Source: Candidatus Bathyarchaeota archaeon
GTDB taxonomy: Archaea; Thermoproteota; Bathyarchaeia; Bathyarchaeales; Bathycorpusculaceae
Assembly: GCA_963811105.1 (NCBI GenBank)
Contig: CAWEPZ010000009.1
Coordinates: 256,001 to 320,000 of the forward strand
Direction of reading: 5' to 3'
Length of the DNA stretch: 64,000 nt
The notes beneath the pieces were generated by a model. It had not been told where the DNA came from and made no database searches. It saw nothing but the letters and a program-made list of their open reading frames with translations. The position numbers and the translations under genes were made by a program. How positions within the stretch are numbered: position 1 is the first letter of the stretch; every line of letters begins with the position of its first letter. Of the stretch, positions 52,271-64,000 are shown piece after piece.

Positions 52271-53131
52271 TTGAGCAGCATGAACAAGCTTGGCGGCTTC
52301 ATCAGGTTAATACGACCAATCAACTGCTTAATGATGGGATTCGCTGTTCTTGTAGGAGCAATTCTAGCCAACCTCCAATTAGCCGGCTTAAACTGGCTTA
52401 ACATCCTATTCGGTTTCTTAACGGGCTTCACTTTTTGTGCTGCAGCGATGGTCATTAACGACTACTACGACAGATATATCGATGCCATTAACGAACCCTC
52501 TCGCCCTATTCCAAGCGGTTTAGTGAAAACCAATGAAGCCTTAATTTTCATGATTTTGCTTTCTGCTGTAGGTTTTGCTTTCGCCTTCTTGGTTAGCATT
52601 CTCTGTTTAGCTGTGGCAGCTGCTTCTCTTGCAATTACCGCAACTTATTTGACCGTGGGTAAGCGCAGCGGGTTGCCGGGGAACTTTCTGGTAAGTATAT
52701 GCGTAGCCATTCCCTTTATTTACGGCAGCCTAGTCGCCGTCAACTTTGTAAAGTTAAACATTCTGCTGTTTGCGACCATGGCTTTCTTATCCAACACCGG
52801 CAGAGAAATTACAAAAGGTATCGTAGACACAAAAGGAGATAGCGCCAAAGGCATCAAAACGCTTGCAGTACGATTCGGTGAAAAAAACGCGGCAATTGTG
52901 GCTGCGGTGTTTTATGTTTCGGCGGTGGCGTTGACACCTGTTACGTGGTTCTTGAATTTAGTGGGGGTAGGGTTTATTCCGTTTGTTTTAGTAACTGATG
53001 TGGGACTAATAGCTTGTTCAGTTATTCTACTCTTGGATCATTCACGGGAAAAGGCAAGAAAAATCAAGAATGTAGTTTTGCTGCTATTTTTGGTCGGGTT
53101 GTTAGCATATGTTTTTGGCAGTTTTAAATGA
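52271..53131 (+). CDS. UbiA prenyltransferase (digeranylgeranylglyceryl phosphate synthase-like)
   Basis: RPIN, NDYYDRYIDAINEPSRPIPSG, REITKGIVD.KGD. Confidence 0.9.
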   Translation: MSSMNKLGGFIRLIRPINCLMMGFAVLVGAILANLQLAGLNWLNILFGFLTGFTFCAAAMVINDYYDRYIDAINEPSRPIPSGLVKTNEALIFMILLSAVGFAFAFLVSILCLAVAAASLAITATYLTVGKRSGLPGNFLVSICVAIPFIYGSLVAVNFVKLNILLFATMAFLSNTGREITKGIVDTKGDSAKGIKTLAVRFGEKNAAIVAAVFYVSAVALTPVTWFLNLVGVGFIPFVLVTDVGLIACSVILLLDHSREKARKIKNVVLLLFLVGLLAYVFGSFK

Positions 53132-53231
53132 AAAACCGCAAAGTAGCCTCGTTATTTTTTACATATATATCTGCATGTTAGCAACAATTAAAAGCGCCTT
53201 TCGCTGAATCAACCTTCAAGAGGATGTTAAC

Positions 53232-53882
53232 ATGTCTGAACGATTTGCTAAAAAATGGGAAGCTAAAAGAGAAGAAGAATCATTTGGAAAAGCCATACAT
53301 GATACTATTCAGCCGCCACCACCACTAAAAATAGCCTTAGACCTTGCCTGCAGAAAACTTGATTTGCAAATTGGCAAGCTTGACCAAGCTAATGAACGCT
53401 TTACGCAAAAAGATAAGTCCCTTTTCGCTAAACTAGTGCAAGCATATACAAACCATGATTCATCACACGCAAACATTTATGCTATCGAACTAGCAGAAAT
53501 CCGCAAAATGACAAAACTAATTATGAACGCAAGACTCGCACTTGACCAAGTAGCTCTCCGCATAAAAACAGTTTCCGAGTTAGGAGATGTCGTTTCTGCA
53601 TTAGGACCATGCATTGGTGTACTGCGCAGCGTTAGCTGTGGACTTGGCGGAGTTTTACCTGAAGCAGAAAACGAACTAGGTGACATCGGAAATATGCTAA
53701 GCGGCTTAATGTTTGACGCAGGCACAAGCAGCGGAATGTCACTGAACTTCAACTCATGCAACGAAGATGCAGAAAGAATCCTAGCAGAAGCAGCAACTGT
53801 AGCTGAACAAAGAGTCAACTCCAATTTCCCTGACCTTCCACCAGGAATGTCAACAGGCACAGCTAATAAAACACAAACTTAA
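53232..53882 (+). CDS. cdvB: ESCRT-III/Snf7 (CdvB paralogue)
   Basis: ANIYAIELAEIRK, LR..TV.ELGD, PEA.EL, EDAERILAEAA..AE; no C-terminal wHTH. Confidence 0.85.
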   Translation: MSERFAKKWEAKREEESFGKAIHDTIQPPPPLKIALDLACRKLDLQIGKLDQANERFTQKDKSLFAKLVQAYTNHDSSHANIYAIELAEIRKMTKLIMNARLALDQVALRIKTVSELGDVVSALGPCIGVLRSVSCGLGGVLPEAENELGDIGNMLSGLMFDAGTSSGMSLNFNSCNEDAERILAEAATVAEQRVNSNFPDLPPGMSTGTANKTQT

Positions 53883-54116
53883 GCAGAAAATACTTCTTTT
53901 TTAGCCCTCTGCCTTTCTTTTTTTTAGATTCAGAATCTTAGCTTGACAAAAATTGAGCATAGTTTACTCTATTTCGGATGGTTTGACCTTGCTCAAAAGA
54001 TTTTAGCTGTCATGCAATTGTATGTGCTTTCAGAAATGTCAACTTTGAATCTGCACAGTACAAAGATAAACAAGTCCCTTCAAAAAACGCCTATTAGTAC
54101 ATATTAGAACGAAATG

Positions 54117-54133
54117 TTCTAACAATTGGACTT
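54117..54133 (+). repeat. attL core TTCTAACAATTGGACTT
   Basis: Identical to 61823-61839. Confidence 0.88.
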
Positions 54134-54200
54134 TTTAGATGTTAAATTCCAAATTATTTATAAGCCCAGTTGAGAATACACTTTTGAGGATTGAGATAAC

Positions 54201-55412
54201 TTGACAAAGTTTGATGTAGTCGAAACTTGGATAAGCACAGTAGCTTTTTCTCACTCCAACAGCGAACGAACAAGCTTATGTTACCGCGAGAGTCTCAGGA
54301 AGTTTGAAGCCTACGCTGGAAAAACAGCCCAAGAAATCTATGTTGAGTATCAAAGCCCAAATGTTAGCGACAACAAATTCAAAATGTATTATGCGCAAGC
54401 TTTGAAAGGAATGATCGGGGACCTCCACAAAAGAGGGTACTCTGCTTCTTCTGTTTCAACTGCTGTTAACGCTGTGAAGTCCTTCTTCAAATATTCTGAC
54501 CTGCCTTTAGGCTTCATTCCTTCTGGTAATTCTATGATTGAGTTTCACAACAAAGACATCGAGAGAACTGATATTCTTGAGGTCCTGAAGACTTCTGGTC
54601 CACGAGAGAAGGCTTTCTTCACTTTGATGGCGCAATCAGGCTTGAGACCTATCACGCTTTGCGCCTTGAAACTCAAAGACGTAGAGAAGATCTTAGATGA
54701 GGACACGCCGATTCCTTGTTTAATCAAGGTGAAAATGGAGAACACTAAGGGCAAATTCTCTGAGTATTTTAGTTTTTGCGGAGAAGACTCTGTTGCGTAC
54801 TTGAAGGATTACTTGAAGACTAGGTCGAATTTGAACCCAGAATCTTACTTATTCTCTATGCAAGGCTTAGAGACTCAGCTTAACCCGGGTGTTGAAAGCC
54901 ACGTTTTCGACAAAACTGCTAAGAAGCTGAGGAACAGCGGAGTCCTTGACTACAAAACAGAAACGAAAGAGTTGAAGCAAGAGGTCCTGAGGAAAAGCGG
55001 AACCTACACACGCAACCTTCTCACGAGATCCGAGTTTCGACTGTACAATTTGCGGAAGTTCTTCAGGAAATATGCGAATCAAGCTGGAGGCGAATACGTC
55101 AACTTCTGGATGGGACACCTGTCAGCTTTGGGAGTGGACCTTCACTACTTCAGTCAAGACGTTGAGCAACACCGCGAGATTTACCGAGAGAAAGCTATGT
55201 CTTTCTTGCGCTTAGAGACACAGACACCGAGCGAGAACGAGAAACAGATCAAAGAGTTGAGAGAAGAGAATCTTGAGTTGAAAGCTGAAATAGCTGAGTT
55301 AGCGAAGGCACAAGAGAATTATGTGTATTTGGAACAGAAGTTTCTGAACCTCGAGAAACTGTTTGAGAAATTTGAAGCCTCCAAAGGCAAAGCTGTAACA
55401 GAGAAATCTTAA
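54201..55412 (+). CDS. Tyrosine recombinase/integrase with C-terminal coiled coil
   Basis: SGLR, TKG, YNLRK (HxxR position), MGH, HY catalytic motifs. Confidence 0.92.
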   Translation: MTKFDVVETWISTVAFSHSNSERTSLCYRESLRKFEAYAGKTAQEIYVEYQSPNVSDNKFKMYYAQALKGMIGDLHKRGYSASSVSTAVNAVKSFFKYSDLPLGFIPSGNSMIEFHNKDIERTDILEVLKTSGPREKAFFTLMAQSGLRPITLCALKLKDVEKILDEDTPIPCLIKVKMENTKGKFSEYFSFCGEDSVAYLKDYLKTRSNLNPESYLFSMQGLETQLNPGVESHVFDKTAKKLRNSGVLDYKTETKELKQEVLRKSGTYTRNLLTRSEFRLYNLRKFFRKYANQAGGEYVNFWMGHLSALGVDLHYFSQDVEQHREIYREKAMSFLRLETQTPSENEKQIKELREENLELKAEIAELAKAQENYVYLEQKFLNLEKLFEKFEASKGKAVTEKS

Positions 55413-55500
55413 GAATCAATGTTCTCCAATGGTTTCCATCTGTTGAAATAAGCTCATCTTGAGCTTCTTTTTATTATTGCTGGCTAAATAAGGCTTATAA

Positions 55501-55513
55501 GTTACTTAGTAAC
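55501..55513. promoter_or_regulatory. Palindrome GTTACT-T-AGTAAC just after TATA (operator candidate)
   Basis: Follows TTATAA at 55495-55500; sibling motif at 61501-61513. Confidence 0.5.
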
Positions 55514-55521
55514 CCAATAAC

Positions 55522-56055
55522 TTGAGGATTGAGTTAGAATTGAAAATATTGAAGTCTAAAAAGAAAATAAGCCTTATCGCTCTGTCCTTAGTTTCTTTGA
55601 TGTTAGTGTCTGGGGCGATGGGCGCAGTTCTGTTCTCCCGTCAAGTCGGGTCAACAATCAACGTGGTCTACAGTCGAGACCTCCAAATGTTCAGCAACAC
55701 CGCTTGCACTACAACTTTGACAAGTTTTAGCTACGGAGATGTAGCACCGAACACTGTCAAAGTTTATGGTTCAACAGATCCGAGTATCTATGGAAAGAAT
55801 CCTACTACTGCTCAAGGCGCAATTAATGTGACTTGGCACGTAACTGGTCTTCCAAGTTGGTTAACTTTGACTTTGAAAGGTGGCGGAGGATCTTTTGGTG
55901 TGGCTCTGCAAAATTGGGACCTTGGAACTGAAGGATGTGTGTTGGCTGTTGGCGACAAGTTTTATTGTGAAGTCACTTTGACTGTTGCTTCAAATGCTCC
56001 TGAAGGTTCCGCTTTGAACGCTGGAACCTTAGTGTTTGACTGTACTCAAGCTTAG
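55522..56055 (+). CDS. Secreted beta-rich protein of the element
   Basis: KKK + hydrophobic signal ending GAMG/A; beta-strand-rich mature part; T-tract terminator at ~56070. Confidence 0.8.
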   Translation: MRIELELKILKSKKKISLIALSLVSLMLVSGAMGAVLFSRQVGSTINVVYSRDLQMFSNTACTTTLTSFSYGDVAPNTVKVYGSTDPSIYGKNPTTAQGAINVTWHVTGLPSWLTLTLKGGGGSFGVALQNWDLGTEGCVLAVGDKFYCEVTLTVASNAPEGSALNAGTLVFDCTQA

Positions 56056-56134
56056 GAGTCAGTCCCTCTCTCTTTTTTTTGGTGGTTGAAAGGTTCAGTG
56101 GAAACTTTGAGGTTGTCTCTGTGGAGTGGTTGAT

Positions 56135-56275
56135 GTGAAAAGAAAATGTGAAGTTGCTGAAGTTGAAGCTTTAGATGTTGAGTGTCTTGAGGAACTTGAG
56201 TGGGAGAGACGTTGGGAACAGCGTAGAAGGTTGGAACGGAAACTTGACTTTGAGAGGATGATCAGCTTTGGCTAA
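56135..56275 (+). CDS. 46-aa charged microprotein (not in ORF track)
   Basis: MKRKCEVAEVEALDVECLEELEWERRWEQRRRLERKLDFERMISFG; GGAG upstream; overlaps the next ORF. Confidence 0.55.
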   Translation: MKRKCEVAEVEALDVECLEELEWERRWEQRRRLERKLDFERMISFG

Positions 56276-56429
56276 GTCAGCTAAATGGGTTGGTTTAGGC
56301 TTAGGAAGACGCTGTAGAATCCGCATGCGCTGTCAAGAGTGCGATGTGACCTTTTGGAAGTGGCTGACTCTTCAAACTCTTGAGGTTCATTGTCCAAATT
56401 GCCGAAGTGACTGTGTTGAAGGTCTGTAG
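56268..56429 (+). CDS. 53-aa Zn-ribbon microprotein (not in ORF track)
   Basis: RCQECDVTF...HCPNCRS; SD GAGAGGA; T-tract follows. Confidence 0.7.
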   Translation: MAKSAKWVGLGLGRRCRIRMRCQECDVTFWKWLTLQTLEVHCPNCRSDCVEGL

Positions 56430-56472
56430 GCAGACCCTTTTTTCTTTGGTCTCTTAACCCTGCTTTTTTTGC

Positions 56473-56787
56473 TTAACTTTCTGTTGAGTCACAGGAGTCA
56501 CAGTAGCGGTCTTCAAAGTCCACTCTGCAACGGACCTCGTTCAATCTCGGAATCACTGGTGGAACACTCCAGCCTAACAGATGTCTTCCACGTTGAGGAA
56601 GCTCGTAGGCTTTGTACCTGCTGATTGAAGCGTAAACTTCTCCTTTGACTCCATGGGGAAGAATTGATCCGCACACTCGACATTTTAAGCCTTCAGTCTT
56701 CATTGGAATCATGTGAAAAATGGTTCTCTTAGTCGCTGTCGGAAAACTGATTCCTTTCTTGGATATTACTGCTTTAGCCCAAACCAT
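56473..56787 (-). CDS. Zn-finger protein
   Basis: CRVCG...YCDSC; SD GAGGA. Confidence 0.7.
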   Translation of the reverse strand: MVWAKAVISKKGISFPTATKRTIFHMIPMKTEGLKCRVCGSILPHGVKGEVYASISRYKAYELPQRGRHLLGWSVPPVIPRLNEVRCRVDFEDRYCDSCDSTES

Positions 56788-57040
56788 AGTTCAGAGTCCT
56801 CTTTCAAAGGTTTCAAGTTTCTGTGCTGGAACATAAGAATTTTTGGTTTAACATTGAAGGTTGAGACCACTACATCCAATTGGATCTAACTGGGAAGATG
56901 TTTGGAAGTGAAGGCTTAACCAGCCGAATAGAAGAAAGGAGACGAGTTTCCTAGGGAACTGTTCTCTGATGGAAGGCAGAGGACAACTCCTTTATTTGCC
57001 CAGTGAATTCGCCTTAGCTGGGTGGAATGTGACTGTTCTT

Positions 57041-57616
57041 CTACTCGGTTTCTGGAGCCTTCAACTTCCAAGTGATCTTCAAAGCAGGCTGGTAGCCTCT
57101 TATCAGCTTAGTCGGGTCCAACAGGGGAATTATGCTTTCGTACTGGATCTTGTTTTCTCGCTTCAGCCTTTCTGCTTCGGATTGTGCTAGTTTGCAGAAG
57201 TGTTCTGGTGCTATGGCGACTTTGGCGACTCTGGTGTCAAACACTGTTTTGAAGGGCAGATTCTCTAAAACTCTGCTCTCGTAGCTTTGTGGAAATCCTA
57301 GTCTGATTTGGTGTTCTGTGGATCCTAAAGTTCTTGCATTTGCCACTGCTTGCTCGTAAGCTAACTTTGCCTTCGGCAATTCCACAGCTAGGTACTTCTC
57401 GTTAACTGTTTTTTGGTGACTGTGCTCTATGGAATCTTTCTGGTTAACCCACACGTCAGCGTATCCTGCTGAAGCTTCAATGTAGCCTTCTCGCTCGACT
57501 AGGTTGGCTCCCCAGTTTTGTCTGTAACCTAAAATGATTTCCCAAGAGAAGCCTTCAGTTACACCAGCATACTCCAGAACACTCTTCTTTTGAATCTTAG
57601 GTTTCTTCGTTGGCAA
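57041..57616 (-). CDS. Hypothetical element protein
   Basis: 191-aa ORF starting a few nucleotides after the upstream ORF in the leftward operon. Confidence 0.7.
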   Translation of the reverse strand: MPTKKPKIQKKSVLEYAGVTEGFSWEIILGYRQNWGANLVEREGYIEASAGYADVWVNQKDSIEHSHQKTVNEKYLAVELPKAKLAYEQAVANARTLGSTEHQIRLGFPQSYESRVLENLPFKTVFDTRVAKVAIAPEHFCKLAQSEAERLKRENKIQYESIIPLLDPTKLIRGYQPALKITWKLKAPETE

Positions 57617-57620
57617 CGCT

Positions 57621-58079
57621 TCAAGCCTTCAGGTCTTCAAGTTTCACAGTTAACGATTTCTCGCACTCTTTCAGGTAATGTATGAACTCGCTTAACACAG
57701 GAGAAATGGATTCACTGATTACGGAAGGTGTGACGCCTAAGACTACGCCTTCAAAGAACTCTTTCTTCTTCTCGGTTTCAGTCCTTGACTTCAAGATGCC
57801 GTTTTGGTTTGGATGTCCCTTCAAACTCCAAATAGCCTCGTTCAGTTGACATTCACCGTTCACTAACAACATTTCAAGCGCTAATGAGTCACGTACCGCT
57901 TTATGCATGATACCAGCCATGTTGTAGAGTTGATGTAGCATAACTGTCGCTGGCAAATAGTCTCCTTTAGACTTGAAATCTTCATGAGAAAGCTCTTTCT
58001 CAAGAAATTGACACTCTGTATCTAGACTGCAACCAAACTGTAACTCTAAAGTCTTCAATTTCGCATGGATAGGCAACAT
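57621..58079 (-). CDS. Hypothetical element protein
   Basis: 152-aa ORF in the leftward operon. Confidence 0.65.
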   Translation of the reverse strand: MLPIHAKLKTLELQFGCSLDTECQFLEKELSHEDFKSKGDYLPATVMLHQLYNMAGIMHKAVRDSLALEMLLVNGECQLNEAIWSLKGHPNQNGILKSRTETEKKKEFFEGVVLGVTPSVISESISPVLSEFIHYLKECEKSLTVKLEDLKA

Positions 58080-58151
58080 ACTAATTCTATGTCCTCAGTA
58101 ATGGGCAAACCTGAGTTTTTCAACAGGCCGACACTTCAACACTCCACCCAG

Positions 58152-58220
58152 TTGTGCAACATTGCACAAGTGGATGAATCGACCTTTGTGCAACATTGCA
58201 CAAACGTGGATAAATCAACA
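58152..58220. repeat. Tandem pair of TTGTGCAA-CA-TTGCACAA palindromes
   Basis: Copies at 58152-58169 and 58186-58203, each followed by GTGGATRAATCRAC. Confidence 0.8.
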
Positions 58221-58517
58221 TTTTCTGGAAAGAATCTTCCTCAACTTCTCAGGCTTAAACATCTTATGAAGAGATCTCTGGTGTAGCTGTAGAATTTCTT
58301 GGTCCCTCTTCAAGTCCTCCTCAAGCTCAAGACGCTTCAAGTACAGGACCCTGTTCTCTACTGGAACTCCTTTGAGTAACTCGAGTTCTGCTCTGTGTTT
58401 TCGCTTCAAATACTGGAGATGTTGCCTCTTCTGTTCCTTGGACCTCACAGGTTTTCCTGCAACACTGAAGGAATCTGCATGGACACTTACTTCTCGGTCA
58501 ATGGAGTTTTCGATCAT
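58215..58517 (-). CDS. Hypothetical basic/coiled-coil element protein
   Basis: 100-aa ORF adjacent to the upstream ORF. Confidence 0.65.
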   Translation of the reverse strand: MIENSIDREVSVHADSFSVAGKPVRSKEQKRQHLQYLKRKHRAELELLKGVPVENRVLYLKRLELEEDLKRDQEILQLHQRSLHKMFKPEKLRKILSRKC

Positions 58518-58521
58518 TGAC

Positions 58522-59112
58522 TCATTTCCCCCTGTCTACAGAAGCTTTCTGAGTGCTAATTTGGCACATTTGAGTGTCAACTGGGACATTTCGTTTTCTT
58601 TGTCGAAAATAAGCTACTCTATGCTTCAAAGAACAGAACCTTGCCTTGTTGCTTTTAGCTTGAAAACGAGTTTTGCAGAATAAGCAAACCTTGTTTCTTC
58701 TCTGCTTCACATGCTCTCTACGTCTAATTATTCCAGCGTCAACACTGCAACGGTAAGAACAGTACAGTCGCCTTCTACTTTTAGAATAGAACAGGTTACC
58801 GCAAACAGAACAGTTTTTCTTAAAGTTTAAAGATTCATAACCCCAAAATTCGAGATTTTTTTCATAATCCTCGGGGTTTGCCGAATTTTGTACTATCCTA
58901 AGTTGCGGGTAACGTTCGCCTAAGGTTGGAAACGATTTTAGGCTATGTTCAATTGATCCTAACCTAACAGCGTTACAGTAGTCTATGCGTAGGCAAGTAT
59001 CTTTTTTCTTGAATTGTTCCTCTTCCCATGCGTCAAGCCAACTTAAGTCAGGTAACGATTTAATGCTTGTATCAATTGAGACAAGCTTGGAATCGTTACT
59101 CATGAAGAACAC
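58522..59112 (-). CDS. Double treble-clef (CGNR-like) Zn-finger protein
   Basis: CSVCG..F......YCSYRC and CLFC...F......FCSLKHR. Confidence 0.75.
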   Translation of the reverse strand: MFFMSNDSKLVSIDTSIKSLPDLSWLDAWEEEQFKKKDTCLRIDYCNAVRLGSIEHSLKSFPTLGERYPQLRIVQNSANPEDYEKNLEFWGYESLNFKKNCSVCGNLFYSKSRRRLYCSYRCSVDAGIIRRREHVKQRRNKVCLFCKTRFQAKSNKARFCSLKHRVAYFRQRKRNVPVDTQMCQISTQKASVDRGK

Positions 59113-60836
59113 CTGTCTACTGTAGGTTTCTGAGTGTCTGTTCGGTCCTTTTCTATGTCAACTGGAAGCTTAAGCTTGAAGCATGTGAGGAAACCAGCCC
59201 ATTTGTCTGAAGACACAGACATAAAATTGTCACCGATATAACCGCAACTTGCCAAATGAAAATCTCGACAGTTACCACACACTCTGTCTTCACTGTCAGA
59301 AGACGGAACCTTTGGAACCTGTGTTGTACCACTAAACCCAAGTGAGGCTGAAGCTTTCTTTGTTTCACTAACTACAAGTGGGGCTCCTGCCCCCTCACCT
59401 TCCTTCTCCTTTATACCCCCCTTTTCCCCTATTCCCTCTCCACTTGTGTTTAGTGAAACAAACATATTATGGTCACTACGACCGTTCAACGGTCCAAAAG
59501 GCAATATCAGAATTCTTAAAGTGGGATCCAGCAAAGTCCAGCCGTCTTTCTCTGGAACATGTTTAGAACCAATGACGGTGCCAGAGTAACCGTAGTGGTC
59601 TACTTCAATTTTCTCGTGTTTGACTACATTCAAGTATTCCAGTTCTTTGAGTTCTCGCCAACAGGTTGACAGGGGAATTTCTGTGGCTTCAGCAATTTCT
59701 CTTGTAGTGTACTGTTGATCATCTTTTTTCAATGCTTCTAAGATTTTGATTCTGTGAGGGTACACTGTGTCTTTTGCTACTCGCTGGACCGTTTTGAGTT
59801 CTTCTTCAGAAACAACAGTTTTTCCTCTTACCAAAGCGAGACAGATAGCTAACTTCAACAGTTGTTTGCTGAGTCGAGTCGGGTACTCTATGCTCGGCGT
59901 TAAGGAATTGTTGATTTCATATCGATAAAAATTGATTGAGACAGGTGTTCTCAAAGTAGCAGTTGCATTTGCAAGCTTCAAGATAACAGATAAAACTTCA
60001 GGTGAGACCGCTTCAATTTTCTTTGGTTCTTTATGGAAGTTGTCAAGTAGACGCCAAGTTATTTCCTGTAGTTCCTTACGCATTTCCTCTTCTTTGCCTA
60101 GGTTCGATAAGGCTTTCTCTGTTGCGAGTTTACGATCGGGATTATGTCTTATCTTCAGGAATCTCTCGCCTAGAGTGCCTTGTAGTTTTCCGTAGTGGTC
60201 AACTGCCGGGGTCACAGCCGCTATTAATCCAAAGTTGGCGTGAACTCTAACAGGTGTACCAGTTGTTCCGTAACCATACTCTAAGTAGCCATCGTAGCCA
60301 GCGCGTAGTTGACTGAAGATTTCATCTCGCTCTTCACTTCTTTTCCCAAGAATCAAAGTGAAGTCTTTGATGATCAAAACTTTGCCGTCGAGTTGTGGCA
60401 AAATTCCTTGCACAGGAACCATGTTGCCTTCTTCGTCTGGTTCAAGTTTGCCGCTGATCAAAGTGTGCGCAGTCAAAGAATCCAAAGTGTAAGCCATATC
60501 TGAAGTGTTTGCCCTTACGATCTCTGTTTTGGTTCCTCCGCTTGCACTTATTAACATAAGCCAAAGTGGATCGCCAGGTACGAGTCTGTCAATTGAACAC
60601 GCCATAATAACATCGATTACTTCGTGGTCGCTGTCGAGGTAAAGCCACTTCTGAAAGACTTCTTTGACTTCTTGAAGAGTTGCAGGAATAGGTGTTTTCT
60701 TTATTACTTCTAACATTTTTTTGCCTTCACCCCTACATTTGGGACATAGAAGATTGCCTGTAGCAGTGACTCTGGTTACTTCAGGGCTAACGATTCCGCA
60801 GGATACACATTGTTCCCACTTCGGTTTTTCCGTCAT
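59100..60836 (-). CDS. Divergent MCM-like AAA+ replication helicase with N-terminal Zn ribbon and wHTH
   Basis: CVSC..CPKC; Walker A SASGGTKT; Walker B LIIKDF; GERF finger; PTRL..QLLKLA sensor-2-like helix; wHTH TTREIAEATEIPLST..RELKEL. Confidence 0.7.
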   Translation of the reverse strand: MTEKPKWEQCVSCGIVSPEVTRVTATGNLLCPKCRGEGKKMLEVIKKTPIPATLQEVKEVFQKWLYLDSDHEVIDVIMACSIDRLVPGDPLWLMLISASGGTKTEIVRANTSDMAYTLDSLTAHTLISGKLEPDEEGNMVPVQGILPQLDGKVLIIKDFTLILGKRSEERDEIFSQLRAGYDGYLEYGYGTTGTPVRVHANFGLIAAVTPAVDHYGKLQGTLGERFLKIRHNPDRKLATEKALSNLGKEEEMRKELQEITWRLLDNFHKEPKKIEAVSPEVLSVILKLANATATLRTPVSINFYRYEINNSLTPSIEYPTRLSKQLLKLAICLALVRGKTVVSEEELKTVQRVAKDTVYPHRIKILEALKKDDQQYTTREIAEATEIPLSTCWRELKELEYLNVVKHEKIEVDHYGYSGTVIGSKHVPEKDGWTLLDPTLRILILPFGPLNGRSDHNMFVSLNTSGEGIGEKGGIKEKEGEGAGAPLVVSETKKASASLGFSGTTQVPKVPSSDSEDRVCGNCRDFHLASCGYIGDNFMSVSSDKWAGFLTCFKLKLPVDIEKDRTDTQKPTVDRCSS

Positions 60837-60952
60837 TGGTACAACTCCTCACCACAGCACCAGCATTGAGTTCTGTACTTAGAGTTCATTTTGCCACACT
60901 TCCAACATTGCACTGTGTTGGCGGTGACTACTCTTTCTTCAAGAACACTCAT
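60833..60952 (-). CDS. 39-aa RanBP2/NZF-type Zn finger (not in ORF track)
   Basis: CWKCGKMNSKYRTQCWCC = C-x2-C-x3-N-x6-C-x2-C; ATGA overlaps with both neighbours. Confidence 0.75.
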   Translation of the reverse strand: MSVLEERVVTANTVQCWKCGKMNSKYRTQCWCCGEELYQ

Positions 60953-61176
60953 TCCGTAGCCTCCTCCTCGAGTGGGTCCTTGCTTAATGGAATAATGAAT
61001 TTCCAGAAAGTGTGAAATTTGTCGCCTTCAGAAGGCAACATTTCGCCTCTCATCGCTATGAGGAAGGTTCCCTCGATTGTTTTGAAAAAAATTTCTAAGG
61101 CTTCTTGTTTTCCTGTTCCTTTAACAGTGATTGTTGACGCTTCTCTTGGTGGACGATTCTTGTTCATTGTTTTCAC
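60949..61176 (-). CDS. Hypothetical element protein
   Basis: 75-aa ORF translationally coupled to the downstream Zn finger. Confidence 0.65.
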   Translation of the reverse strand: MKTMNKNRPPREASTITVKGTGKQEALEIFFKTIEGTFLIAMRGEMLPSEGDKFHTFWKFIIPLSKDPLEEEATE

Positions 61177-61259
61177 TCTTCATGTGTTTTCACCTTACCC
61201 AAGTTCCAGTTTCCAGTTTCCAAGTTCCAGATTTTTTCCGTTTCAACCTTAAGAACGGA

Positions 61260-61421
61260 TTACTCTACGAGTGGGATTGCTTCTCTCAGCACGTGTCTTA
61301 TTGCGTTGCTTCTTGTGAGTCCCCGTGCTTTTGACCATCTGTCGATTTCTTTGACGTACTCGTTTGACTCTTCAAAGGATACAGTTTGGTGACCTGTTCT
61401 AATTTTCTTCGATGTCTCCAA
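61260..61421 (-). CDS. CopG-like ribbon-helix-helix regulator, 53 aa (not in ORF track)
   Basis: TVSFEE...YVKEIDRWSKARGLTRSNAIRHVLREA; SD AGGAG; first gene of the leftward operon. Confidence 0.8.
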   Translation of the reverse strand: METSKKIRTGHQTVSFEESNEYVKEIDRWSKARGLTRSNAIRHVLREAIPLVE

Positions 61422-61576
61422 CTCAAATTTCTCCTTTTTTTCTTAGCACTTACTAAACCTTCTTAGTTTTAAAGGTTGCTAACAACGTGTCAATAACTGA
61501 GTAACTTAGTTACCGAAATTGATTGGAAAGTGACAATCTTCACCATCGAAGATTCCATGTGTCTGTCAACAACATG

Positions 61577-61722
61577 GGGTTTGTACAATATTGTACAAAC
61601 CCTTCCAGAGTTCTGTCAACAGTCTTTGCTTGCAGAAAAAGGAAGACAAAACTTAGAAGCTACTTATCCAAAGAATGGTCAAAAAGGATTCCAACCAGTG
61701 CTTGTACAATCTTGTACAAGCA
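61577..61722. repeat. Two palindromes built on TTGTACAA-NN-TTGTACAA (candidate origin/operator)
   Basis: Perfect 26-bp palindrome GGGTTTGTACAATATTGTACAAACCC (61577-61602); TGCTTGTACAA-TC-TTGTACAAGCA (61699-61722). Confidence 0.8.
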
Positions 61723-61822
61723 TTAACTCTGTTGAGAAGGTTGATTCTCTCGAGACTGTAACTCAAAACTGCAAGCAACTGAGTAAGCCTTAAATTTGCT
61801 GTTCTACTTATTAGAACTTAAT

Positions 61823-61839
61823 TTCTAACAATTGGACTT
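61823..61839 (+). repeat. attR core TTCTAACAATTGGACTT
   Basis: Identical to 54117-54133. Confidence 0.88.
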
Positions 61840-61883
61840 ATATGCTCCTTGCAATTTCTTATGTTCCTTGGGGGTTCAAGTGC

Positions 61884-62330
61884 TTGAACGGTAAAGAGGA
61901 AACTGACCTGGAATATGCGCTAAAAGGCAAAGCATGGAAAGTTTATTGGTTTCTACTCAAAACTGGCAATCCTGTGGGTGTCCGCGAGGTTCAACGTGCG
62001 CTGCATTTCAGCAGCCCAAGCATCGCATTTCATCATCTTGAGCAGTTACGAGAACTTGGATTGGTTCAGAAGCAAGAGATTGGTGGACACTACTCATTGG
62101 TTGGGGAAGTAAAAATCGGTGTATTACGTCACTATGTTAAGCTTGGGAAATTGCTGTTTCCAAGATATTTCTTCTACGCCTTATTCTCGACCATGTTCTA
62201 CATTTTGTATTTGACCATTCTGTTCAGCGGTTTCACCCGAGATAACTTATTCATACTCTCATTCGGAGCAATTGTCTGCGCAATATTCTGGTACGAAGCG
62301 TACCGAATTTGGGCAATGAGGCCATTCTAA
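61884..62330 (+). CDS. Membrane-anchored wHTH transcriptional regulator
   Basis: LKG...KVY..LL...PVGVREVQRAL.FSSPS.A.HHL..L..LGLV, plus two C-terminal TM helices. Likely start TTG 61884. Confidence 0.85.
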   Translation: MNGKEETDLEYALKGKAWKVYWFLLKTGNPVGVREVQRALHFSSPSIAFHHLEQLRELGLVQKQEIGGHYSLVGEVKIGVLRHYVKLGKLLFPRYFFYALFSTMFYILYLTILFSGFTRDNLFILSFGAIVCAIFWYEAYRIWAMRPF

Positions 62331-62405
62331 CTATTAGAACAGCTTGTTCGCAGGCTTAGCATCAAATAAACACGTGCATTATGCTTTAGCAGGAGAAAAA
62401 AATGT

Positions 62406-64000
62406 ATGGTACAAAAAGAAGTTAAGAAAAAGACAACAAGATACGCAATCGTTGCAGTTCTCTCAGCCATAGTGATAGTTACATTAATCTATAGTTTCGG
62501 TGTAGCCCCAACTATTTTTCCGCCTGGGCAAACACCTTTTGTGGCGAGTATGAAAACGTTCTCTTCAATTGATGAACTTAAAACTTACATTACAAACAAT
62601 TCTTTGGGTGGTTCCTATTACAGCGGAGGACCATTGGATTCCCAGTTCTTCGGGAGCCCGCCTCCTATTCCTATGCCTGCATCTGTGTCTTTGTCTCAAG
62701 GTGTATTTGGCTCAGCAGAAACCAATTCCGCTCAAGCTAGTTATTCAACTACCAACATTCAAGTCGCAGGCGTAGATGAAGCAGACACAGTTAAAACAGA
62801 CGGGCAATACATTTACACAACAACGACAACTGAAAATTTACATTATTTTTCTGGTGATTTCGGAACCCAGTCAAGCAACACAGTTTATATATTAAACGCT
62901 GACCCGCAGAACCCCGAGGTTGTGACAAAAATAAATTTAGGCAATGACACTGAACCCGCGGGGCTATTTCTAAGCCAGGATGGCGGCAAACTTGTTGTTT
63001 TGGCAAGTAAATACCAATATTACAGTTACGGCAACGGGATTATGCCCCCTATGTCTGTCGGCACCAATGGCGGTATTGCAATGCCAATGCTTGCATCCTA
63101 TCACTCTGACGTTTATACATTCATCAACGTTTATGATGTAACAAACAAGGCTAACCCCGTGCTTGAGAGCAACTTCACGGTAAGCGGCAGCTACTTCAAT
63201 TCCCGCATGATTGGCAACTACGTTTACGTTGTCGTCAGCCAACCAGCAACAGTACAAAACAACGCTGTAACTCTTCCAGTAGTCTACAACGGCAAAGCCG
63301 AAACCAACATACCGCCAACAAGCATCTATTACACTGACATGGTAGAACCCAGCTACTTCACCTACACCAGCTTCTTTGGCATCAACATCTTAGATGACAC
63401 CCAGCAACCCACCAAACTGACTGTGATGATGGGTGGAGCAAGCACAATGTACGTTTCCCAAAACAACATGTATGTAACTTACCCAACTTGGACAAACGGC
63501 GGTCAATACACTGACATCTATAAAGTCAGCATAAACGGAACCGACTTGACCTTTGAAGCCCAAGGCAACGTGCCAGGCTACACAATAGATCAATATGCAA
63601 TGGATGAGAACAACGACCACTTCCGAGTCGCAACCAACTGGCAAGGCGTAACTACTTCAGCCCCAAATCAGCAGACTAGCTCAAAAATGAACAACGTCTA
63701 CGTGCTGGATTCAAACTTGACCATCGTGGGCAAACTTGAAGGCTTAGCAGAAGGCGAAAACCTACACTCAGTTCGCTTTATGGGCGATAAATGCTACCTT
63801 GTAACCTTCATAAAAACGGACCCCTTATTCGTCATTGACCTCAGCCAACCAACAGACCCCAAAGTTCTCGGTTCACTGCAAATCTCAGGATACTCAGACT
63901 ACCTGCACCCATATGACGAGACACATCTGATTGGCGTAGGCAAAGAAGCATCTGCATCTGACACAGGCAACTTTGCATGGTACCAAGGCATTAAACTGGC
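62406..64000 (+). CDS. Secreted beta-propeller domain protein (partial, runs off the window)
   Basis: N-terminal TM; YSTTNIQVAGVDEADTVKTDGQYIY; QYAMDE...FRVAT; SVRFMGD..YLVTF...DPLFVIDLS; GYSDYLHP. Confidence 0.9.
   Translation, partial: MVQKEVKKKTTRYAIVAVLSAIVIVTLIYSFGVAPTIFPPGQTPFVASMKTFSSIDELKTYITNNSLGGSYYSGGPLDSQFFGSPPPIPMPASVSLSQGVFGSAETNSAQASYSTTNIQVAGVDEADTVKTDGQYIYTTTTTENLHYFSGDFGTQSSNTVYILNADPQNPEVVTKINLGNDTEPAGLFLSQDGGKLVVLASKYQYYSYGNGIMPPMSVGTNGGIAMPMLASYHSDVYTFINVYDVTNKANPVLESNFTVSGSYFNSRMIGNYVYVVVSQPATVQNNAVTLPVVYNGKAETNIPPTSIYYTDMVEPSYFTYTSFFGINILDDTQQPTKLTVMMGGASTMYVSQNNMYVTYPTWTNGGQYTDIYKVSINGTDLTFEAQGNVPGYTIDQYAMDENNDHFRVATNWQGVTTSAPNQQTSSKMNNVYVLDSNLTIVGKLEGLAEGENLHSVRFMGDKCYLVTFIKTDPLFVIDLSQPTDPKVLGSLQISGYSDYLHPYDETHLIGVGKEASASDTGNFAWYQGIKL

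Follow-up and report, generated by a model that had tools for sequence, protein, structure and literature searches.

A 7.7-kb element bounded by perfect repeats

The window analysed here is a 64,000-nt stretch of the genome of a Candidatus Bathyarchaeota archaeon (contig CAWEPZ010000009.1, positions 256,001 to 320,000; whole assembly 3.49 Mb), and all coordinates below are positions within it. Near its right-hand end, between two host genes, lies a compact element delimited by two perfect copies of a 17-bp direct repeat, TTCTAACAATTGGACTT, which form the cores of the attachment (att) sites attL (54117-54133) and attR (61823-61839). With up to two mismatches allowed, the window holds no further match; a count of two is reached in none of 100 shuffled sequences, and the 3.49-Mb genome likewise holds the repeat only twice at up to one mismatch. 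The two copies are spaced 7706 bp start to start, in agreement with the repeats and the predicted excised circle of 7706 bp that an initial annotation, made from the sequence alone and without database searches, had put forward. The G+C content of the element (0.40-0.45) shows no contrast with its flanks. As set out below, the element is real, precisely bounded and apparently intact.

Thirteen open reading frames (ORFs), all open, lie between the repeats. Those read rightward encode a 403-aa tyrosine integrase, a 177-aa protein and two small ORFs. The leftward genes encode, in order, a ribbon-helix-helix (RHH) protein of 53 aa, a 75-aa protein, a 39-aa zinc finger, a 578-aa helicase, a 196-aa double zinc ribbon and proteins of 100, 152, 191 and 104 aa. 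The initial annotation had listed these genes in this order, and the window ORF list contains them as claimed; the ATGA couplings that it described correspond to 4-nt overlaps at 60949-60952 and 60833-60836. The host gene on the left (53232-53882, + strand) encodes a Snf7/ESCRT-III-like protein (Snf7 E 4.7e-4, below the cut-off) and has an orthologous flank in relatives. The gene on the right (61842-62330, + strand) encodes a protein combining a winged helix with a membrane segment, whose orthologues align from residue 6-20 onward.

The unoccupied site in related genomes

An unoccupied version of the site was found in public metagenome data. Run X1, the only public run that shares words with the stretch (share 0.05), represents a related strain lacking the element. 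One of its contigs (646 nt, depth 5.2) joins position 54116 to 61823 and thus skips exactly 7706 bp; at the junction 17 letters are compatible with either side, and the shorter side is 39 letters long. Positions 53234-54116 are covered by another contig of the same run, with 23 differences. The strain is ~96-97% identical to the one studied here, its flanks differing by ~3-4%, and almost no depth falls over the element. The check for an empty attB that had been proposed with the initial annotation therefore returned the expected junction. We conclude that the element is an insertion with exact boundaries at the 17-bp core.

Genomes of the same genus give a consistent picture. Orthologues of the right-flank gene occur in 39 of 41 related genomes, the window's own being counted, and 11 same-genus loci around this orthologue were compared with the window flanks. 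In six of them (L037, L038, L040, L042, L043 and L044) the left-flank gene lies ~50-1300 nt away with no 7.7-kb insert, five of these six genomes having a single att-like site shortly before the right-hand gene. Overall, a single att-like site with 0-4 mismatches stands directly upstream of the right-flank gene in 10 of the 11 loci. It is followed by ATAT in nine of the ten, as at attR in the window, where host ATATG, conserved in relatives, comes directly after the core; in the tenth (L036) it is followed by ATTA. When 100 further genomes of the genus were searched at the DNA level, no close copy of the element was found, with short matches to helicase or integrase fragments in four.

Similarity between the two ends is not confined to the core. 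For ~23-25 nt leftward of each att copy the sequences remain imperfectly similar: the arm on the host side of attL (54092-54116, limits approximate) is partly like the element-side arm left of attR (61799-61822), TATTAGAAC being common to both, and this host-side arm is similar to the sequence that precedes the att-like site of L038, an empty locus. The element-side arm contains the palindrome GTTCTA-CTTAT-TAGAAC, which is also found upstream of the att-like site in several same-genus loci. Because the two arms are partly alike and the palindrome also precedes the att-like site in relatives, the predicted attP resembles attB over about 40 bp, so that integration would leave the host gene with a native-looking upstream region.

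The annotated right-flank ORF is 162 aa long. Its orthologue in genome G020 begins MNGNDE at a TTG codon, and the window has an in-frame TTG at 61884 from which the protein would begin in the same way; this is probably the true start of the gene. With this start, the att core would lie 45-61 nt upstream, overlapping the TATA-like sequence CTTATAT, and hence probably in the promoter region of that gene. A tRNA or other RNA gene was considered as the target and rejected: ARAGORN reports no tRNA in the window, and Rfam nothing in 53000-63000 at E<=0.1, so the att site lies outside any known RNA gene.

The host winged-helix gene is itself bracketed by TTCTAA/TTAGAA inverted-repeat motifs (61803-61839 and 62325-62342). 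Upstream these comprise GTTCTA-CTTAT-TAGAAC and the att core; downstream, TTCTAACTATTAGAAC overlaps the stop codon, and this downstream motif is conserved in same-genus orthologues. The motifs may be operators of the host regulator, taken over by the integrase family as a target.

The integrase and other occupants of the site

The integrase (54201-55412, + strand) is an unsplit protein of 403 aa with a coiled-coil-like C-terminal tail. It matches Pfam Phage_integrase (PF00589) at 28.0 bits against a cut-off of 27.1, and NCBIfam XerA with E 2.7e-11, far under the cut-off of that family. Tyrosine recombinases carry the signature R, K, H/Y-x-x-R, H, Y. In four homologous integrases, which share the C-terminal tail, R149, K183, Y282-x-x-R285, H306 and Y316 are invariant, and we take these residues to be that signature, with Tyr replacing the first His. 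The initial annotation had likewise described the integrase as unsplit.

Homologues of the integrase, at 47-51% identity, were found in 4 of 119 other genomes of the genus. In two of these (G020 and G095) the homologue occupies this very site, flanked by the same two host genes, and its cargo is unrelated. The first is an element of ~9.2 kb (L055:7008-16240; G020:C59) between the UbiA/Snf7-like genes and the winged-helix gene. It carries an integrase ~50% identical to ours, a 609-aa protein without a Pfam hit, a GNAT acetyltransferase beside a small helix-turn-helix (HTH) protein, a SWIM-finger protein and others. An att-like site precedes its integrase gene, and this left site and the sequence before the host gene are alike at only ~10 of 11 bases. 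The second is a 2.8-kb mini-element (L069:812-3652; G095:C155) whose two products are an integrase, 45-48% identical, and a protein of 200 aa that has a single hydrophobic segment, so that ~1.4 kb only is present beyond the integrase. It lies between two att-like sites that are alike at 14 of 17 positions, directly before the same host gene. The left site is immediately followed by a further, degenerate att-like copy, possibly a sign of tandem insertions in the past. When the 13 element proteins and three flank proteins were compared by tblastn with the integrase-relative loci, only the integrase and the host flanks were matched; a 14-residue match to zn53 (E 0.003) was taken as chance. Because other cargo occupies the same site in two other genomes of the genus, this chromosomal position is an integration hot spot with interchangeable cargo.

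On another reading, the 7.7-kb element is itself an immobile remnant: an integration long ago would have left a genomic islet whose mobility genes are no longer functional. The two relatives look decayed, one sharing ~10/11 bases between its ends and the other reduced to an integrase and ~1.4 kb between sites alike at 14/17, and neither a circular form nor excision of our element was observed. Here, by contrast, the repeats are perfect, all 13 ORFs are open, the integrase is full-length with invariant catalytic-type residues, and the 4-nt gene overlaps are preserved. Its absence from a strain that differs by ~3-4% in the flanks, and from the 100 other genomes of the genus, also points to a recent gain. 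We consider an immobile remnant very unlikely, and the element is probably still mobile. The initial description of a compact, apparently intact integrative element is supported: this is a site-specifically integrated mobile element, for which an empty site was found.

An MCM-fold helicase without the MCM N-terminal domain

The largest product of the element is a 578-aa AAA+ helicase (59100-60836, - strand), in which Pfam finds only HTH_24. Its AF2 model has a mean pLDDT of 74, and 10-residue blocks between residues 51 and 440 are mostly above 85. The layout comprises an N-terminal zinc ribbon, an AAA+ core and lid (residues ~50-360), and a winged helix in which HTH_24 covers residues 362-400 (E 1.4e-6) and further strands follow, the model running through helices and then strands from 360 to 443. 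The last 128 residues (451-578) form a disordered tail with a Cys cluster common to three relatives. The best Foldseek matches of the model are MCM chains (E ~1e-8), with BchI at 1.5e-7. In a VIA search the top 50 entries are all MCM proteins (Z 19.7-17.7, 262-314 residues aligned, root-mean-square deviation 3.6-5.4), the best match having Z 19.7 over 262 residues at a deviation of 3.6.

Sequence-based searches behaved differently from the fold searches. No Pfam MCM family matched at E<=0.1, and a profile of 20 homologues searched against PDB sequences retrieved winged-helix chains only. There is also no room for the N-terminal OB domain of MCM, as only ~50 low-confidence residues, containing a C-x2-C...C-x2-C ribbon, precede the AAA+ core. 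Across the 20 homologues G100, K103 and E105 (in SGGTKTE, Walker A-like), D158 (in IIKDF, Walker B-like) and R225 and R230 (in GERFLKIR) are invariant; these motifs, together with an IAAVTP stretch, resemble the Walker A, sensor-1 and SRFD arginine-finger motifs of MCM. The protein thus has the MCM fold but is not a canonical MCM, because it has neither a Pfam MCM hit nor the N-terminal OB domain. The initial annotation had named it an MCM-like helicase, which the structure model supports at the level of the fold; at the level of Pfam families the name found no match.

The family to which this helicase belongs extends well beyond the host lineage. We found 173 homologues at E<=0.001 among the candidates scored. 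Among the matches listed, 17 of 120 carry a primase-type Pfam domain (Prim-Pol, Toprim_2 and others), and the closest, at 59-64% identity and on contigs of ~7-10 kb, include P0003 and P0017, which lie on contigs of 10.3 and 9.4 kb. The family is present in 7 of 400 other genomes of the Bathyarchaeia class (E<=1e-10) and in 18 species-representative genomes, 14 of them bacterial. In IMG/VR, 15 loci encode relatives at 23-37% identity; three were inspected, showing terminase genes in L006 and L009, a portal gene in L009 and primase fusions in L002 and L006. In two other Bathyarchaeota genomes (L057:8037-11541, G076:C13, and L019:9929-12528) a gene for a helicase 55-57% identical to ours immediately precedes that for a tyrosine integrase of a different type (376-377 aa); one of the two helicases is a 779-aa Prim-Pol fusion. 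Both look like further integrated elements built on the same helicase family. The family is widespread in bacterial and archaeal mobile elements and has no Pfam model.

The cargo around the helicase is not shared in the same way. A tblastn comparison of the 13 element proteins and three flank proteins with 33 helicase-relative loci matched the helicase alone. The helicase gave no tblastn match in GenBank phage records or PLSDB plasmids, and a metagenome scan with its single sequence as query returned one distant locus only.

Judged by published description, the closest characterised analogue would be BcMCM of a Bacillus cereus prophage, a 3'-5' helicase described as keeping only the MCM AAA+ region behind a zinc-binding, non-MCM N-terminus (PMC2715239). 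As with BcMCM, many relatives of the 578-aa helicase are fused to primase-type domains; unlike it, the 578-aa protein stands alone, with a zinc ribbon of ~35 residues before the AAA+ core, and the two are likened here by description only. Cch of staphylococcal SCCmec is likewise described as a mobile-element helicase with an MCM AAA+ region and no MCM N-terminal domain (PMC7581432, PMC9371898). No Cch entry was among the listed structural matches of our helicase, which is not evidence against a relationship.

Palindromes and the RHH protein

The element contains four copies of an 18-bp palindrome of the form TTGTRCAA-NN-TTGYACAA, at 58152, 58186, 61581 and 61702. None of 100 shuffled sequences reached four copies, the 3.49-Mb genome holds the same four sites only, and a reversed control gave none. 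Two identical copies, TTGTGCAACATTGCACAA (58152-58169 and 58186-58203), lie in the 135-bp gap between the genes for the 100-aa and 152-aa proteins. The RHH gene has 401 bp of non-coding sequence upstream of it, which holds the other two, TTGTACAATATTGTACAA (61581-61598) and TTGTACAATCTTGTACAA (61702-61719). One helical turn separates the half-sites, a geometry that suits a dimeric RHH or winged-helix binder, and we infer that the palindromes are candidate operators, a candidate origin, or both.

The RHH protein (61260-61421, - strand) is the product of the first leftward gene. It scores 19.8 with RHH_1, against a cut-off of 20.5, and matches the PHROG CopG-like repressor family at 2.1e-5. The initial annotation had an RHH protein heading the leftward operon; the position is as described, while the assignment to the family is marginal. 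Its best NCBIfam match is the aCcr1 cell-cycle regulator family, a weak one (E 1.2e-4, 21.9 bits against a cut-off of 60). The element adjoins a host Snf7/ESCRT-III-like gene, an adjacency that is perhaps coincidence.

Near-orphan proteins and the question of a virus

Downstream of the integrase gene, the 177-aa ORF (55522-56055, + strand) encodes a predicted secreted or membrane-anchored, beta-rich protein with a hydrophobic N-terminus. An in-frame TTG at 55540 gives MKILKSKKK followed by the hydrophobic stretch and is probably the start. The protein has one homologue, at 86% identity, and no relatives in IMG/VR. Its feature look-alikes in the Atlas are unnamed viral or Bathyarchaeota clusters, the nearest labelled mostly viral, with scores of 0.94-0.95, and among named clusters DUF1102, camelysin and CARDB come closest; both results serve as leads only.

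Among the leftward genes, the 191-aa protein (57041-57616, - strand) is a near-orphan whose structure model, fairly confident at pLDDT 78, combines a beta-sheet with a long helical hairpin. Three homologues were found among 5.8 billion proteins; the 400 other class genomes searched and IMG/VR contained none, and the Atlas gave no usable hit. Foldseek found nothing for the model in PDB or BFVD at E<=0.001, and in a wide VIA search the best match (Z 6.9) covered the helical hairpin only, so that no known fold was matched. The 152-aa protein (57621-58079, - strand) is also a near-orphan, with one homologue at 49% identity; two weak hits to leucine-rich-repeat (LRR) proteins were not trusted. The results for the 177-, 191- and 152-aa proteins point neither towards a virus nor away from one. 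For the highly charged 100-aa ORF (58215-58517, - strand) no family was found.

A majority of the ORFs is unassignable, which leaves room for the element to be the provirus of a small, undescribed archaeal virus, with the orphan 177-, 191-, 152- and 100-aa proteins and the small zinc-finger proteins serving as virion or morphogenesis proteins of uncatalogued folds. Small archaeal viruses often have no recognisable capsid genes. The fairly confident 191-aa model without a fold match, the mostly viral-labelled clusters that resemble the 177-aa protein (again a lead only) and the distant helicase relatives in tailed viruses would all be in line with a provirus. Against it, neither Pfam nor PHROGs detects a capsid, a packaging ATPase or another viral hallmark, and the 191-aa and 177-aa proteins are without relatives in IMG/VR. 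The two hydrophobic helices that are described as a feature of spindle-virus capsids (PMC10848311) were seen by eye in no ORF, the 177-aa one apart. In addition, the four families of Bathyarchaeia viruses described in the same source are tailed, filamentous or fusello-like, and none, as presented there, resembles this gene set (PMC10848311). We regard a provirus as unlikely. Slightly less likely still is the more specific proposal that Bathyarchaeia host a family of double-stranded DNA viruses that is so far undescribed and has a very small genome (7.7 kb), in which the 177-aa and 191-aa orphans would be the virion proteins and the minimal MCM-fold helicase would replicate the genome.

Searches of the element with Pfam, PHROGs, NCBIfam and PADLOC returned no capsid, terminase, primase-polymerase, conjugation or defence family, the only PADLOC matches being to the helicase winged helix. 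The initial annotation had likewise recognised no capsid, terminase, primase-polymerase or conjugation genes. As regards conjugation, the helicase is the only ATPase in the 7.7 kb, and a single protein has a hydrophobic N-terminus, a set that falls short of an integrative and conjugative element.

The same lack of recognisable structural genes is what a satellite would show, integrating and replicating by itself and needing a helper virus for packaging and spread. Such a way of life has parallels in pSSVx and pSSVi with fuselloviruses and in the phage-inducible chromosomal islands of bacteria. Small size, an integrase, a regulator, a self-contained helicase replicon and few small genes would fit it, as would the occurrence of helicases of the same family in tailed viruses. 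On the other hand, neither a helper virus nor a gene homologous to those for packaging or capsid remodelling was identified, no cos/pac-like feature was seen, although none was specifically sought, and the data do not separate a satellite from a plain integrative plasmid. We consider a satellite improbable, somewhat more so than a provirus.

Relationship to known elements and a proposed life cycle

The cryptic integrated elements of Thaumarchaeota are described as integrase-bearing, mostly <20 kb, bounded by short direct repeats and without a viral or conjugative signature (Krupovic et al. 2019, PMC6563490). According to the same description, their replication proteins vary and include MCM and a Cch-like AAA+ helicase, and some are inserted in intergenic sites rather than in tRNA genes (PMC6563490). 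The operational definition used in that source also covers the present element (PMC6563490), which has an integrase with att sites and a replication protein and shows no viral or conjugative signature. It differs from those elements in its host class and in its helicase, which is without an MCM N-terminal domain, and no sequence relationship is detectable beyond the general integrase and AAA+ folds.

A second parallel is Yucahu-i of Atabeyarchaeia, described as a 10.9-kb integrative plasmid-like element with an 11-bp att (PMC11529989). As in the present element, its first gene is reported to encode a tyrosine integrase, and HTH proteins, a replicon built on a helicase and a short att are also described, the same att motif being used by unrelated elements (PMC11529989). 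That study places its integrases near those of Bathyarchaeia, and describes an SF3 (superfamily 3) helicase with a Holliday-junction resolvase in an element seen both integrated and circular (PMC11529989). The helicase of our element has an MCM fold, and no circle was observed. Resemblance to the pRN-family plasmids of Sulfolobales lies in the similar size range, in the existence of integrated forms and, if the marginal RHH assignment is right, in a small RHH repressor gene heading the replication operon.

The Rep protein of pRN plasmids is a primase-polymerase fused to an SF3 helicase, and pXQ1 and pSSVi are integrated relatives of this family. Unlike pRN, the present element encodes no primase domain, its helicase is of the AAA+ MCM-like kind, and no PlrA-like gene was detected; Pfam, PHROGs and NCBIfam found no Prim-Pol or SF3 family in any of its ORFs. 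Full-length MCM proteins are known from the TKV elements of Thermococcales and from pTN3, which, like our element, are integrating archaeal elements whose main replication protein is an MCM-type helicase. Those MCM proteins are of the cellular type and recruited from the host, whereas the present helicase has no Pfam MCM hit and no OB-fold domain. That archaeal plasmids and proviruses carry MCM has been stated in general terms (PMC6563490), and the replication operon of pRN1, orf56/orf904, which has been described (PMC4234260), offers a comparison for the copG-rep logic.

In the papers searched we found no small plasmid-like element of Bathyarchaeia, though supplementary tables may list some; the mobile elements that these papers describe for the class are viruses. 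Most ORFs of the present element have 0-3 homologues. The initial annotation had suggested a possibly undescribed type, which the analysis does not support in that form: the sequences are new, and the kind of archaeal element is one already described in the cryptic integrated elements and Yucahu-i.

Taken together, we favour as the probable nature of the locus an integrated, plasmid-like 'cryptic integrated element' of a Bathyarchaeia host, whose circle, once excised, would measure 7706 bp. The tyrosine integrase would recombine attP with the attB immediately upstream of the host winged-helix/membrane-protein gene, probably in its promoter, and the element-side arm would mimic the native upstream sequence, so that the host gene would keep a native-like upstream region after integration. 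The excised circle would replicate by means of the 578-aa MCM-fold AAA+ helicase, whose zinc ribbon and winged helix may substitute for the absent MCM N-terminal domain. Because the element encodes neither a primase nor a polymerase, the helicase would have to recruit both from the host. The RHH protein may act as a CopG-like repressor or copy-number regulator, and the four palindromes could be bound by this protein, by the helicase winged helix or by both, as operators and/or origin. The secreted 177-aa protein and the near-orphan ORFs would be accessory genes.

Several points weigh against this interpretation. The family scores of the integrase and the RHH protein are marginal. The empty-site join is a single low-depth contig, from a related strain rather than from the same population, and excision or a circle was not observed, the sole word-sharing public run (share 0.05) being one without the element. 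The palindromes are absent from the other loci fetched, including those with helicases 55-57% identical, and both the protein that binds them and the position of an origin are pure inference. With no primase or polymerase encoded, autonomous replication relies on an assumed recruitment of host enzymes. Finally, at least six ORFs have no assignable function, hence a virion role is possible for some.

The locus offers a clean, bounded and apparently intact small replicon from Bathyarchaeia, with a defined attB/attP pair and a dedicated integrase family. Its four genome-unique palindromes are testable candidates for operators or an origin, and its helicase could serve as a compact model for how an MCM-type motor is loaded without the N-terminal domain. 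As a small self-contained module, it could also provide the basis for genetic tools, of which this lineage has none.

Small genes and promoter-like sequences

The remaining ORFs are small or rich in zinc-binding motifs. The 196-aa protein (58522-59112, - strand) contains two C-x2-C...CS-x2-C zinc-ribbon units; it matches phrog_2862 (E 1.1e-7), a family without assigned function, and DUF1272 below the cut-off. The 39-aa zinc-finger ORF (60833-60952, - strand) overlaps both of its neighbours by 4 nt. The spacing C-x2-C-x3-N-x6-C-x2-C is visible in it, and the initial annotation had called it an NZF finger; Pfam returns only generic zinc ribbons (E 0.009), which does not confirm the name. The 104-aa ORF (56473-56787, - strand) has a CxxC...CxxC pattern and no family in Pfam, PHROGs or NCBIfam. 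Of the two small rightward ORFs, that of 49 aa (56126-56275, + strand) is highly charged and has no family in Pfam or PHROGs, and that of 53 aa (56268-56429, + strand) resembles Zn_ribbon_8 (E 0.0019, below the cut-off). No family was found for the 75-aa ORF (60949-61176, - strand).

Upstream of the integrase gene, a TATA-like box, TTTATAAG (54157-54164, + strand), marks a putative promoter, and a similar sequence, TTTTATAAG, stands upstream of the integrase gene in L055. The integrase and 177-aa genes also have a leader in common, TTGAGGATTGAG (54184-54195 and 55522-55533), ~17 nt before their likely TTG starts, and each copy is preceded by the TATA-like sequence TTATAAG. This arrangement suggests two separate, similarly built rightward promoters, one for each gene.

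A sequence like the first of these was found elsewhere in the genome. A 36-bp stretch (G000:C9:205735-205770; L056:9735-9770), located ~50 kb before the window, is 94% identical to the first bases of the left end of the element, in the region of the presumed integrase promoter. It lies in a gene-poor gap of ~1.2 kb between an ABC-transporter ATPase gene and a sensor kinase gene, with no integrase beside it. A CRISPR spacer was considered and rejected, as no repeats flank the match, which may be the relic of a related element or a shared promoter.

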